From the NCBI GenBank assembly GCA_038045705.1, contig JBBSXO010000006.1, forward strand, positions 1-64,000: a stretch of 64,000 nt of DNA, written 5' to 3'. The notes beneath the pieces were generated by a model, which did no database searches, was not told the DNA's origin, and worked only from the letters and a program-made list of their open reading frames with translations. This document shows positions 19,187 through 31,208 of this stretch, one piece after another; the first letter of the stretch is position 1, and every line of letters begins with the position of its first letter. This DNA is from Nanobdellota archaeon (lineage in GTDB: Archaea > Nanobdellota > Nanobdellia > Pacearchaeales > GW2011-AR1). A program made the translations under genes and the position numbers.

Positions 19187-19666
19187 TTAGATATCTCCAT
19201 ATTTATCTCTAAGCTGTTTATCTTGATCTTCAGATATCAATTTTTGTTGCAATCTTAAGCATTCTACTGCAGTTCCAAGTACCAAATATTCATCTTCTTC
19301 GTTTTGTGTAGCACCAATTAACCATTTATTTGGATCCAATGCATCTTCAGATTCAACATAATTTTTAGGATTAGCAGCATCCATTACTTGTTTTAATAAT
19401 CCTCGGTTTGTTGAGCGTCTTCTTGCTTTTTTAGTGTATGGCTCAAGAATGTCATCTAAAGCTATTAGAAAATATCTTCTTTTTAGAACAGGTACAGCTC
19501 CTGGTTCTACATAATCAGGTAAATGATGTGCTTCCAAACTATTGTCCGCATCCTGGACTGCATCATCGAAATCTTCACGGTGTTCTACAAAAATACGATT
19601 TAGTCCAAGTTTATCAACTAATCCTTGATAAGGGAAGTCTCTCTCTCTCGAATCAGACTCTTCCAT
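19187..19666 (-). CDS. Hypothetical protein
   Basis: 159-aa ORF with TATA upstream. Confidence 0.6.
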   Translation of the reverse strand: MEESDSRERDFPYQGLVDKLGLNRIFVEHREDFDDAVQDADNSLEAHHLPDYVEPGAVPVLKRRYFLIALDDILEPYTKKARRRSTNRGLLKQVMDAANPKNYVESEDALDPNKWLIGATQNEEDEYLVLGTAVECLRLQQKLISEDQDKQLRDKYGDI

Positions 19667-26368: not shown

Positions 26369-26496
26369 TATATCACCATCTCAAAATATAGTCCTTATAG
26401 TAGTTAATAAATTTTCATCAAACTGAATATAAAATATTACCTTTATTAAGTAACAACAATAGAAAAGCTTAAATACTCTTTTTTAATGAAAAGCAC

Positions 26497-27306
26497 ATGG
26501 CAGTCAGTATATATGTTAGCCCAAGCGGAATTGAATCAGCAGTAACTAGTGGTGTAAATTTTAAAGAATCTTTAGCTGAATTAAAGAAAATAGGTCATAA
26601 AGTAATAACTTTAAGAGAAAATGCTAAACTAAGAATTCAACAAGGAAAAGAAGCAGATATATCTCAAAATGGTAATTATGTTATGCAAGGCAACGTCTAC
26701 CTTCAAGGAGAGACAGGGATCATTGTTGCAGAATCTCCATATTTAACTAATGCTACAATGCTTCGAAAAGCCATTAAAGAAAATAATCAAGGAAGATACT
26801 TTAGTACTCCAAATAGAAAGCTATACGATCAATTTCATAAACAAGCTCAAGAAGATACTTCAAAAGACCCAAGAGAACGCAGAGCTGTTTTCATGCCTTC
26901 AGACGGAAGATTTGCAATTTCACAAAGAGAAAATCCAGAGATTTTTGAATTTTTATTGGGAGAATTTGGTCAAAGTTATCTAGAATTTGTTAAACAAGAT
27001 TCTCTAGATTTCTTTCCAGTATCTCAAGAAACTCTTAAATCTTATTCAGGCACAGTTCCAACCCAGTTGTGGTTCGGGCTTGGCGGCGGCAGGTCTTACC
27101 TTGTTGGCGACTTCTACCTCGACCTCGGCGGCCTTAGGGTTCGTGGGGTGCGTTCAGTAGTGAGCGCCACAGGCGCGAACACTTCGCAAATTTCTATCCC
27201 TCAAGGAATCGAACTTTATACTCCTTCACAAATCGCAGAAGCTCTTGAAGGCATGAAACTTACAGGATTAGAAGCTCAGTTAATGAAGAAATTAAGAAAA
27301 AGATAA
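26497..27306 (+). CDS. DGR target (variable) protein
   Basis: Contains the VR (27066-27150) matching the TR; ends VR with CLec-like 'RVRGV'; no signal peptide seen. Confidence 0.9.
   Translation: MAVSIYVSPSGIESAVTSGVNFKESLAELKKIGHKVITLRENAKLRIQQGKEADISQNGNYVMQGNVYLQGETGIIVAESPYLTNATMLRKAIKENNQGRYFSTPNRKLYDQFHKQAQEDTSKDPRERRAVFMPSDGRFAISQRENPEIFEFLLGEFGQSYLEFVKQDSLDFFPVSQETLKSYSGTVPTQLWFGLGGGRSYLVGDFYLDLGGLRVRGVRSVVSATGANTSQISIPQGIELYTPSQIAEALEGMKLTGLEAQLMKKLRKR
27066..27150 (+). repeat. DGR variable repeat (VR)
   Basis: Aligns to 27592-27679 with 21 substitutions at TR adenines, one 3-nt deletion and one codon with non-A differences. Confidence 0.95.
27164..27176 (+). other. Post-VR hairpin GCGCC-ACA-GGCGC (candidate homing stem-loop)
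   Basis: 5-bp GC stem with 3-nt loop 13 nt after the VR; absent after the TR. Confidence 0.65.
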
Positions 27307-27369
27307 TCTCTAGAATATCTTCATTATACTACATTAATTCTTAAAAACAATTATTTCTTTTTAAAAATG

Positions 27370-27694
27370 CCTCGGTCTCTCTGCGGAGTGCAGAGCAAAA
27401 GAGGCCACACGCATTTGTATTAGTCTTGTTTAAGCAAGCAGTAAAATACAACTGCAACAATTAGTATGCTGTCCGGAAAGCGAAACTTGAAGCAGTGGTG
27501 GTGAGTGTTTACATTCAGGCAAGTGATATAAGCATTTTTGAATGTAGGCACGAAGTGAGAAATCACAAATTAGGTACAAAAGCTACTCTGTGTTGTGGTT
27601 CAACAGGCTTGGCGACAACAGGTCTAACCTTAATGGCAACAACTACAACCTCAACAACGACAATAGGGTTCGTGGAATGACCTCTAGACCGAGG
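27370..27694 (+). ncRNA. Structured DGR template RNA enclosing the TR
   Basis: Terminal 9-bp pairing CCTCGGTCT/AGACCGAGG, several internal hairpins with G-U pairs and a GAAA tetraloop; TATA-like TTAAAAA at 27341-27347. Confidence 0.75.
27592..27679 (+). repeat. DGR template repeat (TR)
   Basis: AAC/AAT-rich (28 adenines) copy of the VR just upstream of the RT. Confidence 0.95.
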
Positions 27695-27702
27695 ATTACA
27701 AT

Positions 27703-28796
27703 ATGAAAACCTACAACAATCTGTATTTGCAAGTTTATTCAATGGGCAATCTTACTCTCGCTTGGAGAAAAGCAAGAAGAGGAAAAACAGCCAGACAAGA
27801 TATTCTAGAATTTGATAAGGATGTTGAGAAAAATCTTCTTAAGTTGTATAATGAATTGAAAGATAAAACTTATTCTCCTGAAAATCTCGTTAATTTTGTT
27901 TTGCGAGATCCAAAAACAAGGAAGATTTCCAAATCAGCTTTCAGAGATAGGGTAATACATCATGCTTTAATGAACATAATTGCTCCTTTATTTGAAAAGA
28001 CCTTTATTCACGATTCTTGTGCTGGCAGATTGGGAAAAGGAACTATCCTTGCATTGCAAAGATTTCAATATTTCTTAAGAAAGGTTTCATGCAATCTTAA
28101 AAATAATAAAAATAAGTTTAATGATAGAAATTATGTAAATGGATATTGTCTCAAGGCAGACATTAAACAATATTTCCAAAATATAAATCATGATATACTT
28201 ATCTCAATAATAAAAATGAAGATTAAAGATGAAAGTGTTATATGGTTAATTGAGCAAGTGCTTAATGCGAACTTTGGAAACAAGAGAGAGAGAGAGTACT
28301 TACAGATTGGTTGGGTAATAAAGGAATGCCTTTAGGAAATTATACCTCTCAATTCTTTGCCAACCTTTATCTTAATGAATTAGATCAATTTGTGAAACAC
28401 AAATTAAAAGCGAAATATTACATCAGATATGTAGATGATTTTGTAATTCTTCATGAATCTAAATTACAGTTAATAAAATGGAAAGAAGAAATAAATCAAT
28501 TTCTCAAAGAAAAACTAAAAATTGAGTTACATCCTCAAAAATCAAGAATAATTCCTTTATCTCAAGGAGTGGATTTTGTAGGTTTTAGGAACTTTGCACA
28601 TTTTAAGTTGCTTAGAAAAAGAAATATTAGAAAAATGAATCAAAAGATTGAATTATATAAAAATAATAAGAAAGACTTTAGCTCATTAAAAGAAAGTTAC
28701 CAAGGCTGGCAAGGTTATGCTAAGTGGGCTAACACTCATGAATTAAGACAAGAAGTTAAGAAAAAGATAATAGATGCTCTCTGGGATAAAATATAA
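27703..28796 (+). CDS. DGR reverse transcriptase, split into two ORFs by a frameshift at (AG)7
   Basis: 'DPKTRKI', 'FRDRVIHHAL', 'KADIKQYFQNINH', 'GMPLGNYTSQ', 'YIRYVDDF', 'GVDFVG'; removing 2 nt from the repeat fuses both ORFs into 363 aa. Confidence 0.92.
28283..28296 (+). repeat. (AG)7 microsatellite inside the RT gene
   Basis: Seen directly at the frame break. Confidence 0.95.
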
Positions 28797-28819
28797 CTGA
28801 GTAGAAAGTTTATAAAAAT

Positions 28820-29842
28820 ATGCAATATATCAATAATATGTCAAAAGCACGCTGTTTAATATCAGAAACTCATGACCCATTTTTTAATTTAGCAACTGAA
28901 GACTGGATTTTCAAAGACATGTCCACAGAAGAACACATACTGTTTCTTTGGAGAAATAATAAAACTGTAGTCATAGGAAGAAACCAAAATCCATGGGCAG
29001 AATGTAATATTAACAAATTAGGAGAAAATAAAGTTAATTTAGTAAGAAGACAGAGTGGAGGTGGAGCAGTATTCCAAGATTTAGGAAACACCAACTTTAC
29101 ATTTCTTTCGTCAAGAAGTGAATATGACAGAAAGAGAAATTTTGATATTATAATTAGAGCATTAGAGAAATTTGGAATAAAAGCAGAACAATCAGGTAGA
29201 AATGATATTTTAGTAGATGGTAAGAAAATATCTGGCAGTGCCTTTAAGGAAAATCCAGACAGAGCATTCCATCACGGAACTCTCCTAATAAATGTAAATT
29301 TAAATGAGTTAGCAGATTATCTTACACCTTCCCCAAAAAAGCTTTTAGCAAAAGGCACAACTTCAGTAAGATCAAGAGTTGCAAATTTAACTGAATTTAA
29401 TCAAGAAATCTCTCATGAAAAATTAACCGAAGCAATAATTGAAGAATTCTTTAAAACATATGAATCAGAAAAGAAAATAGAAAGCCTAAATAATGAAAAT
29501 CTAAAAATCATTCCAGAATTAAATAATTATTATCAATTTCTAAAAAGTAATGATTGGTGTTTTGGAGAAACGCCTCAATTTCAGCACCAGTTAACAGAAA
29601 GATTTGACTGGGCAACAGTGGATTTGCATCTAGACACAGATGGGGGAAAAATAAGCAAGGCAAAGCTATTCTCAGACTGTCTTGATACTCAGTTAATAGA
29701 AGAAATAGAAAGAGCAATTCACAACATTAATTATCACCCAGAACATATTTCAAATAGTTTAGAATTAGTAAAAGAACGGTTACCTCATGCATCAAGCCAA
29801 ATCCGAGATTTTCAAGATTGGATAAAGAGAGAAGTCACATAA
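28820..29842 (+). CDS. lplA: Lipoate-protein ligase A
   Basis: 'NLATED', 'IGRNQNPW', 'RRQSGGGAVFQD', 'KKISGSA', 'HHGTLL'. Confidence 0.93.
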   Translation: MQYINNMSKARCLISETHDPFFNLATEDWIFKDMSTEEHILFLWRNNKTVVIGRNQNPWAECNINKLGENKVNLVRRQSGGGAVFQDLGNTNFTFLSSRSEYDRKRNFDIIIRALEKFGIKAEQSGRNDILVDGKKISGSAFKENPDRAFHHGTLLINVNLNELADYLTPSPKKLLAKGTTSVRSRVANLTEFNQEISHEKLTEAIIEEFFKTYESEKKIESLNNENLKIIPELNNYYQFLKSNDWCFGETPQFQHQLTERFDWATVDLHLDTDGGKISKAKLFSDCLDTQLIEEIERAIHNINYHPEHISNSLELVKERLPHASSQIRDFQDWIKREVT

Positions 29843-29871: not shown

Positions 29872-30550
29872 GTGTTTAAATTAAAAGTAGACTTTAATCA
29901 AGATGGAATTGAATCCGCAGTAGTTACAGACCAGATTTGATAAAGTATTAAGAACCTTAAATCCTAATGGTTATGATGTTGTTTCTCTACAAATTAATGC
30001 TTATTTAAGAATAATTGAAGGAAGAAAAGCAACAGTTACTAAAAAAGGGAACTATGTATTGCATGGAATTGCTTATGTAGAAAATAGCTATCCATTATTT
30101 ATAAGAGAATCTCCCCTCATTACAGATCCAAACCTAGCAGAACTAGCAGTAGAAGCAAATAAGAAAATGGCGTATTTTAGAACAGAAAATAGAGATTTGT
30201 ATGAACAGAGTCTTGCAATTGCTCGTGATGAAGAAGGAATAGAACCATTTAAAAGAAGAGTTTTAGTCCTGCCATCAAAAGAACCATTTAAGTTATCAGA
30301 TATAGATAATTCTGAGACTTTTGAAGGAATCTTCGGAGAGCATAGGGGAGATTATCTTCAATTTCTAAGAATGAACAGTCTAATTTTCTACCCCGTTAGA
30401 ACTGATGAAATAGATTCAAAAGAAAGAACATTGTTGACACAAATGTGGTTTGGCAAACGATATGGTTCCAGTAGATCAAACCTATGCGGTAATGATATTT
30501 CACTAAATAAACGCAGAAGTGTTAGAGGAATAAAGAAGTTATCTGCTTAA
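29872..30550 (+). pseudogene. Paralog of the DGR target protein with degenerate VR, frameshifted near codon 21
   Basis: GTG start 'MFKLKVDFNQDGIESAVVTD', then +1 frame 'RFDKVLRTL...NAYLRIIEG...GNYVLHG...TQMWFG...RSNLCGN...VRGI', collinear with 26497-27306. Confidence 0.8.
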
Positions 30551-30673
30551 GTTCACTCTAGTTCTCAAACAACCCACATTATTCAAGAGTATTCCAAAAC
30601 ATTTAGAAATCACATGATTTTATACGTATTTTTATCAGTAAGATTTATATACTATTTACATATTATCATACGT

Positions 30674-31009
30674 ATGGATTTAAGTAAGGAAGACATAATA
30701 AGAATCAATAAAGGCTTTGGAGGATATCCAAGAAACGAATCTAGTCTTGACTTTGCAATTAAACAACAAGAAAGTAAAAAACTTGGAAATTACAAAAAAC
30801 TAGCTTATCTATTTAGATCAATACTTGTAGATCATCCATTTAGCGATGGGAATAAACGTACTGCAATGTTTTTAGCTCTAGCTTTTGCAGATGAAAACCA
30901 TAAAACTGTTAATAGAGATTTATTACTTCACCATATATTATCAATAGCTTCGAAAAATCTAACTCAAATTCGAGCAATCGAGGAGCGTCTAAAAAATGCA
31001 ATTAACTGA
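30674..31009 (+). CDS. Doc/Fic-family toxin
   Basis: 'HPFSDGNKRTA' Doc motif. Confidence 0.85.
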   Translation: MDLSKEDIIRINKGFGGYPRNESSLDFAIKQQESKKLGNYKKLAYLFRSILVDHPFSDGNKRTAMFLALAFADENHKTVNRDLLLHHILSIASKNLTQIRAIEERLKNAIN

Positions 31010-31208
31010 AGAAAAAATAAAACATATCTTGCACAAATATAAAGAAATGTTTGAAATACTTGAGCAATATGATAAGACAAGAGAATGGCCCATAGGAAGA
31101 GCAAAAATAAATCTTACTTTAAGCAAGAGAGTGATTCAGAAACTAAGAAGAATAAAAGAGAAAACAGGTAAATCAATATCTCTAATTATTGAAGAAGCAG
31201 TTTCTTAA
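30996..31208 (+). CDS. Small RHH-like protein, putative antitoxin
   Basis: 'INLTLSKRVIQKL...TGKSISLIIEEAV'; overlaps the Doc stop. Confidence 0.65.
   Translation: MQLTEEKIKHILHKYKEMFEILEQYDKTREWPIGRAKINLTLSKRVIQKLRRIKEKTGKSISLIIEEAVS

Follow-up and report, generated by a model that had tools for sequence, protein, structure and literature searches.

The DGR locus

The window analysed here comprises 64,000 nucleotides (contig JBBSXO010000006.1, positions 1 to 64,000) of the genome of a Nanobdellota archaeon, which was assembled to 844,273 bp in 10 contigs with 32.7% G+C; coordinates without a contig label refer to this window. On its plus strand it carries a DGR target gene (26497-27306, 269 aa), for which no Pfam or NCBIfam family was found at E <= 0.01. 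The variable region (VR) of this gene lies at 27075-27150 and is a 76-nt ungapped match to the template repeat (TR), which is located at 27604-27679, is rich in adenine in the form of AAC codons, and ends 24 nt before the start of the reverse transcriptase (RT) gene. Over the 76 nt, TR and VR differ at 21 adenines of the TR and at 2 adjacent non-adenine positions; in addition, a 3-nt AAC indel is found just upstream of the VR match. Indels beside AAC are described as a common by-product of DGR reverse transcription in the consulted part of PMC5758913.

The locus thus combines an RT with a motif 4 ending in SQ, a TR/VR pair differing at adenine sites, a TR beside the RT gene and a VR within a target ORF, and by these sequence features the ORFs 27703-28335 and 28311-28796 are together the reverse transcriptase of one DGR. 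In a comparison of the RT family profile with solved structures, the closest was 8ub7_A ('Reverse transcriptase', E = 3.5e-56), which we take to be the enzyme of a Bordetella phage. No match to Avd (PF05635) was obtained at E <= 0.01 in the genome, which is 91.5% complete; Avd is not universal among DGRs.

Further DGR-related sequences were noted in the same genome. An ORF of 163 aa (30059-30550) resembles the C-terminal part of the DGR target and remained without a match in a genome-wide TR scan. It is adjoined by a Fic/DOC-family ORF (30614-31009) and a small ORF overlapping the latter (30996-31208), which look like a toxin-antitoxin pair. A second DGR lies outside the window (G000:C6:109533-116995). 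The N-terminal half of its RT (C6:116379-116936) is 47% identical to its counterpart here and stops at the same loop; a sequence of about 50 nt following this half also ends the contigs C9, C1 and C7, pointing to either an interrupted gene or a break in the assembly. For the TR just upstream of this second RT, three matching VRs were located on the minus strand (at about 113.6, 111.2 and 109.6 kb), all differing from it at adenines only.

The (AG)7 tract and the split RT gene

Within the RT gene, a simple-sequence repeat (SSR) of seven units, AGAGAGAGAGAGAG or (AG)7, occupies positions 28283-28296 of the plus strand and constitutes the proposed switch. The N-terminal half of the RT as assembled (27703-28335, 210 aa) comprises the fingers and motif 3, reads through (AG)7 and terminates with a TAG codon at 28333-28335, before the motif 4 and YVDD blocks. 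These are found, with the thumb, in the C-terminal half (28311-28796, conserved from 28323), which has motif 4 as GMPLGNYTSQ and runs one base back in frame relative to the N-terminal half. As the frame of the C-terminal half is open only from 28266, the change of frame must fall within 28266-28335, the segment in which ORF analysis finds both frames open and which includes (AG)7. The Pfam RVT_1 profile is divided accordingly, with positions 8-118 of 205 matching the N-terminal and 116-204 the C-terminal ORF, as is the NCBIfam group II RT model (3-172 and 177-346 of 353, both under its cut-off). In the alignment with 8ub7_A, the tract falls in the loop that immediately precedes motif 4; in 8ub7_A this loop is 6 residues shorter and has no repeat.

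When the number of units was changed by script, six units yielded an ORF of 363 aa and nine units one of 365 aa, with 4, 5, 7, 8, 10 and 11 units giving ORFs of 203-212 aa only. The original prediction, made from the letters alone, had stated that with seven units the RT ends at 28335, before GNxxSQ and YVDD, that six units would restore an uninterrupted protein of 363 aa, that both halves are otherwise complete in their motifs, and that the repeat sits in a linker between conserved blocks. The ORF list, the scripted unit change, the intact GMPLGNYTSQ and YVDD motifs with the clean split of RVT_1, and the loop position in the 8ub7_A alignment bear out these four statements.

Under an order-1 Markov model, the expected count of (AG)7 in the 844-kb genome is 0.005, and dinucleotide repeats of at least five units occur only six times in the whole genome; the tract is therefore more than a chance feature. 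Runs of at least eight G or C were not found anywhere in the genome. Among the six dinucleotide repeats are a (TA)8 at C1:91117 and a (TC)6 at 19638-19649; the latter, read from the minus strand, forms an in-frame (GA)6 close to the 5' end of the ORF 19187-19666 (159 aa).

Assembly check and variation in the population

Nine public runs contain the stretch, and the Logan contigs of four of them (X1, X2, X5 and X7) were compared. The tract is spanned without difference by contigs of X1 (26400-28877), X2 (26943-28877) and X5 (27685-28718), of which only X5 is clearly independent, X1 and X2 being possible sources of the DNA analysed. Logan contigs drop minor variants, and their agreement establishes (AG)7 as the majority state, not as the sole state; that no tract-length variant was seen in the contigs of X1, X2 and X5 is, for the same reason, weak evidence. 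No difference in the VR was seen between X1, X2 and X7, and both (AG)7 and the VR are unchanged across run contigs from two studies dated 2021 and 2025. A contig of X7 starts precisely at 28283, preceded by a stretch of zero depth, and the contigs of X5 are interrupted within the VR (27085/27108); at 3-8x, the depth in both cases is too low to support a conclusion. An assembly error, in the form of (AG)6 in all reads, had been named at the outset as an outcome that would overturn the switch; the run assemblies show (AG)7 and not (AG)6.

In X2, the segment 26534-26971, which encodes the N-terminal part of the target protein, is covered by two contigs of similar depth; the first agrees with the window throughout and the second has 46 differences. 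The same doubling was observed at 28859-29227, in a lipoate-protein ligase gene, with 41 differences. These paired contigs point to a coexisting second strain or a recombinant segment. A metagenome scan returned no near-identical relative of the locus, the best reaching 79%; a sequence with 97% identity, P0006, stops short of the tract.

Repeat tracts in related RT genes

Among the best 120 matches in a protein search with the N-terminal half, roughly half were 190-260 aa long and ended in RERE... or GGG... at the position of the tract, often followed by a frame-shifted reading of the motif-4 block. For counting, 401 species genomes of the same order were searched with the N-terminal half only, a ranking chosen to avoid bias towards intact genes; 154 matched, and the best 150 matches gave 143 loci with both halves. 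A tract was defined as (AG)n of at least 5 units or poly-G/C of at least 8 in the loop. By this definition, 66 of the 143 loci carry a tract and 13 of these 66 are in frame, against 69 of the 77 tract-free loci (Fisher p = 3e-18, ignoring kinship). Broken down by type, (AG)n of at least 5 units was found at 38 loci (8 in frame, 13 shifted one way, 17 the other way), poly-G of at least 8 at 27 loci (5 in frame, 9 and 13 shifted) and C11 at a single locus, which is shifted the other way. Three of the eight tract-free exceptions that are out of frame are shifted at a second poly-G site.

A second, independent sample, likewise ranked by the N-terminal half, consisted of 80 metagenome contigs, 77 of them with both halves. 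Here, 1/10 loci with (AG)n and 3/11 with poly-G were in frame, amounting to 4/21 tract-bearing loci, versus 51/56 without a tract. With both samples pooled (143 + 77 loci), 17/87 tract-bearing and 120/133 tract-free loci are in frame; the two out-of-frame phases account for 29/87 and 41/87 tract-bearing loci, 70/87 in total. A scan by alignment of the full-length RT returned 80/80 loci in frame; this ranking favours unbroken genes and was excluded from the counts, but it shows that in-frame G9-G11 and (AG)13 tracts exist. Most of the relatives are metagenome-assembled consensus sequences, in which assembly may have introduced some error into the lengths of homopolymers of at least 10.

Long repeats (G/C of at least 9, dinucleotides of at least 7 units) are confined to the RT genes of the 143 loci, where all 57 of 57 are located, 50 at the loop and 7 elsewhere; none was found in 295 kb of flanking sequence. 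A second poly-G site, G9-G18, lies just after YVDD (about nt 707-718 of the RT gene) in six relatives (L097, L107, L155, L171, L182 and L185), all without a tract at the first site and three of them shifted at the second, and L180 has G11 at a third site (nt 410). In other orders of the same class, nine genomes with out-of-frame loop tracts were found, including G21 and (CT)9; these are 6/12 extra regions picked for short open frames, a biased choice that serves only to show the occurrence of tracts outside the order, plus L313, L321 and L330. It had been proposed to survey related DGR RTs for an SSR at the same site, with its lack in homologues as a ground for rejecting the switch. Such repeats recur at this site in the homologues, both in and out of frame, and (AG)7 is one instance of a pattern that extends across the lineage.

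Tract length, reading frame and allelic variation

If slippage were free, one third of the tract-bearing loci should be in frame; the observed 17/87 fall below this (binomial p = 0.003). Short tracts are near one third, with 7 in and 11 out of frame for G8-9 and 5 in and 9 out for (AG)5-6. The counts for long tracts are 1 in and 19 out for G of at least 10, 1 in and 21 out for (AG)7-9, and 3 in and 9 out for (AG) of at least 10; long tracts together (G of at least 10, AG of at least 7 units) are in frame in 5/54 cases. This deficit needs either selection for the OFF state or rescue at the RNA level. A costly mutator could be kept mostly off, its tracts being free to lengthen meanwhile; equally, long tracts could permit stutter at the RNA level, with OFF alleles still yielding some enzyme. 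The near-absence of long tracts in frame suggests strong selection for a mutator that is OFF by default, or a low-level transcriptional stutter as the normal working mode.

Close relatives were examined as five pairs of tract-bearing loci whose 500-nt flanks match at 88% or more. In the pairs with 99.4-99.8% flank identity, tract length differs in 3/3, namely (AG)6 versus (AG)8, (GA)5 versus (GA)9, and G13 versus G12 in two copies of one genome; in the remaining two pairs (95.4% and 91.6%), the tracts are of the same length. Ten protein clusters at 90% identity were also read, nine tract-bearing and one tract-free. At least two linker alleles are present in 8/9 of the tract-bearing clusters, and 5/9 contain both ON (read-through) and OFF (truncated) forms; the tract-free cluster is uniform. 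The cluster nearest to this gene (78% identity) contains all three phases, that is, both OFF alleles and one ON allele, and this ON allele reads on into motif 4, much as had been predicted for (AG)6.

On a FastTree phylogeny of 213 RTs, the frame state requires 39 changes, compared with 37.5 +/- 2.4 after shuffling, and it carries no phylogenetic signal among the 87 tract-bearing tips. Some signal was found for the type of tract on the same tree (58 changes versus 81.5 shuffled). A search of the 91.5%-complete genome for MutS_I, MutL (DNA_mis_repair) and NucS_C found none of them, which makes uncorrected slippage plausible; the sole MutS-related find is an ORF with a MutS_V domain (C5:68937-69443, in an open frame of 474 aa).

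Integrity and selection of out-of-frame copies

Among the out-of-frame tract loci, the ORF of the C-terminal half measures at least 140 aa in 48/53 cases; of the others, 2 run off the contig and 3 are short. The median identity of the C-terminal half to this gene is 66-68% in out-of-frame loci, equal to that in in-frame loci. A TR/VR pair is found beside the RT in 45/53 out-of-frame tract loci, 34/45 of these pairs without a non-adenine mismatch; for tract-free in-frame loci, the corresponding values are 45/66 and 33/45. The closest relative at the DNA level, L231, has 79% amino acid identity and (AG)7 in the same phase. In comparison with it, dN/dS of this gene was estimated at 0.09 for the N-terminal and 0.12 for the C-terminal half, and in comparison with L082 at 0.11 and 0.05, respectively; dS is near saturation, making these values rough, yet they are clearly far below 1. 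The part 3' of the frameshift has therefore been translated for most of the time over which these copies diverged. The out-of-frame copies are not decaying; purifying selection on the C-terminal half and the clean TR/VR pairs argue against a dead gene.

Proposed mechanism

We consider (AG)7 to be probably a slipped-strand phase-variation switch of the DGR RT for mutagenic retrohoming, which in this assembly is OFF. The tract would be a hypermutable repeat in a surface loop that separates motif 3 from motif 4 and tolerates changes of length; replication slippage would add or remove units of 2 nt and so move the gene from one of three phases to another. The switch would be ON at 6 or 9 units, for which the RT is complete (363 or 365 aa), OFF at 7 units, the assembled state, or 10, and OFF in the other frame at 5, 8 or 11. 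Cells in the OFF state are expected to make only the 210-aa fragment without motif 4, YVDD and thumb and hence no cDNA, leaving the VR fixed, and rare ON cells would resume the adenine-directed mutagenesis of the target gene. The consensus of the population here is OFF. We infer in addition that the gene switches within a clone, that its ON form is active and that a mutator which is mostly off is of benefit to fitness.

Several features of SSR contingency loci are present. The tract lies within an ORF and its unit number sets the frame, at the level of the sequence; in relatives, length polymorphism occurs among near-identical sequences; and ON and OFF alleles are found within a lineage, with the gene otherwise under selection. 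The contingency locus that had originally been envisaged as controlling the diversifier is supported, as far as sequences can tell, by the frame-variable homologues, the clusters with ON and OFF forms, the purifying selection and the clean TR/VR pairs. Some observations point the other way. That L231 shares both (AG)7 and its phase runs against the expectation for a very fast switch. Moreover, the VR has 2 non-adenine mismatches, and Avd was not found in the genome.

For the DGRs of DPANN archaea in general, we lean towards a selected repeat 'clutch' built into the RT, which would hold hypermutation OFF in most cells and engage it stochastically, and which would have arisen at two or three positions with different types of repeat.

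Alternative explanations

The strongest alternative, which we nonetheless regard as unlikely, is a rescue at the RNA level, with polymerase stutter on the tract or ribosomal frameshifting still producing a little full-length RT from out-of-frame genes. The tract would then attenuate expression instead of acting as a binary switch in the DNA, and such a rescue may combine with slippage of the DNA. It would account for the scarcity of long tracts in frame (5/54) in genes that are nevertheless intact, under purifying selection and accompanied by clean TR/VR pairs, and a stutter giving transcripts of mixed length fits the frequency of both out-of-frame phases (29 and 41 of 87). The length polymorphism at the DNA level, which extends to truly in-frame alleles within the same clusters, is however sufficient on its own, and the segment 28266-28335 contains no slippery heptamer of the form X XXY YYZ. 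The occurrence of two out-of-frame phases also rules out a ribosomal frameshift in a single direction. Transcriptional slippage has been established mainly for long A/T runs, and we know of no demonstration for (AG)7 or in archaea. As the general mechanism, a single programmed ribosomal frameshift is excluded, both phases being common and 28266-28335 lacking a slippery heptamer.

It is very unlikely that this copy is a dead or dying pseudogene, inactivated once at a repeat. The constancy of (AG)7 and the VR in the run contigs of the 2021 and 2025 studies would agree with such a loss, as would the 2 non-adenine mismatches in the VR and the failure to find Avd. Against it stand both halves, intact with all motifs, and dN/dS values of 0.09-0.12 versus L231 and 0.05-0.11 versus L082. 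Non-adenine mismatches are equally common in in-frame relatives (12/45, compared with 11/45 in out-of-frame ones), the AAC indel matches the by-product of DGR reverse transcription reported in the consulted part of PMC5758913, and the nearest cluster contains the ON and both OFF phases.

A split enzyme, with the two halves made separately, the C-terminal one from the conserved ATG of GMPLGN, and assembling into an active RT, is less probable still, and we give it little credence. The Met codon is start-capable in 75/75 out-of-frame and 123/135 in-frame loci, a difference confounded by kinship, and the stop codon of the N-terminal half (28333-28335) lies 7 nt past the ATG at 28326, which could allow termination-reinitiation. 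In the other out-of-frame phase, however, the N-terminal ORF extends about 20 codons beyond this ATG; tracts at the second site cut the enzyme elsewhere; and the split is found essentially only where the repeat is present. Split genes are known in DPANN archaea, but we know of no RT that is split between motifs 3 and 4.

Finally, an artefact of assembly or sequencing at a low-complexity tract can for practical purposes be set aside and (AG)7 taken as real: repeats are error-prone in sequencing and the contigs of L246, L145 and L226 end at the tract, but (AG)7 is found alike in three run assemblies, including one that is not flagged as a source, a dinucleotide tract of 14 nt is short for Illumina error, and the long repeats of the relatives occur only in RT genes (57 versus 0 in 295 kb of flanks), including genes that are in frame.

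Significance and comparison with known systems

If true, the switching of the RT by a repeat would be a simple, heritable and stochastic control of DGRs in a large group of uncultured archaea, by which a target could be diversified briefly and a useful variant then locked in. About 37% of the RT genes at the order level (53/143) would be annotated as split genes or pseudogenes, and surveys that require an intact RT would therefore arrive at too low a number of DGRs for these lineages. The natural regulation of DGRs is termed 'an exciting frontier' in a 2026 study of a reconstituted DGR (PMC12875486). The literature searched, including the consulted parts of PMC5758913, PMC8144416, PMC4372165 and PMC12875486, yielded no account of a repeat or frameshift in the RT gene of a DGR; the main CPR/DPANN survey of DGRs, by Paul et al. 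(2017, Nat Microbiol), may contain a mention.

The proposed switch is most readily compared with the intragenic contingency loci of bacteria, in which the number of repeats within an ORF sets the frame (described, for example, in the consulted parts of PMC3546556, PMC4965091 and PMC2823697). It resembles them in that the frame is determined by unit number, tract length is polymorphic, ON and OFF forms coexist and the gene is otherwise intact. Examples by species are the poly-G/C tracts of Campylobacter and Neisseria and the dinucleotide and homopolymer tracts of Helicobacter. Unlike in these loci, the gene that would be switched here encodes an enzyme of targeted hypermutation, and not a surface, restriction-modification or LPS gene product, such that one stochastic mutator would gate another; the host belongs to the archaea, unlike the bacteria treated in the phase-variation literature found; and OFF is the majority state (70/87).

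With DGRs of the type of Bordetella phage BPP-1, the locus shares the RT family, the TR beside the RT and the adenine-specific substitutions of the VR; it differs in the loop before motif 4, which in 8ub7 is six residues shorter and without a repeat, and in that no homologue of Avd was found. In insect endosymbionts, frameshifted genes are rescued by transcriptional slippage at poly(A) tracts. These are likewise symbionts with small genomes, in which genes out of frame at a repeat are yet conserved. The tracts described here, in contrast, are G-rich or AG tracts in an AT-rich genome, are confined to one gene family, and show a documented polymorphism of length at the DNA level. General mutator genes can also be switched by repeats, as in the repeat variants of mutL/mutS. 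There, as in the switch proposed here, a repeat toggles a determinant of mutation rate; in the DGR, however, what would be toggled is the targeted mutagenesis of a single VR and not the rate of mutation across the genome.
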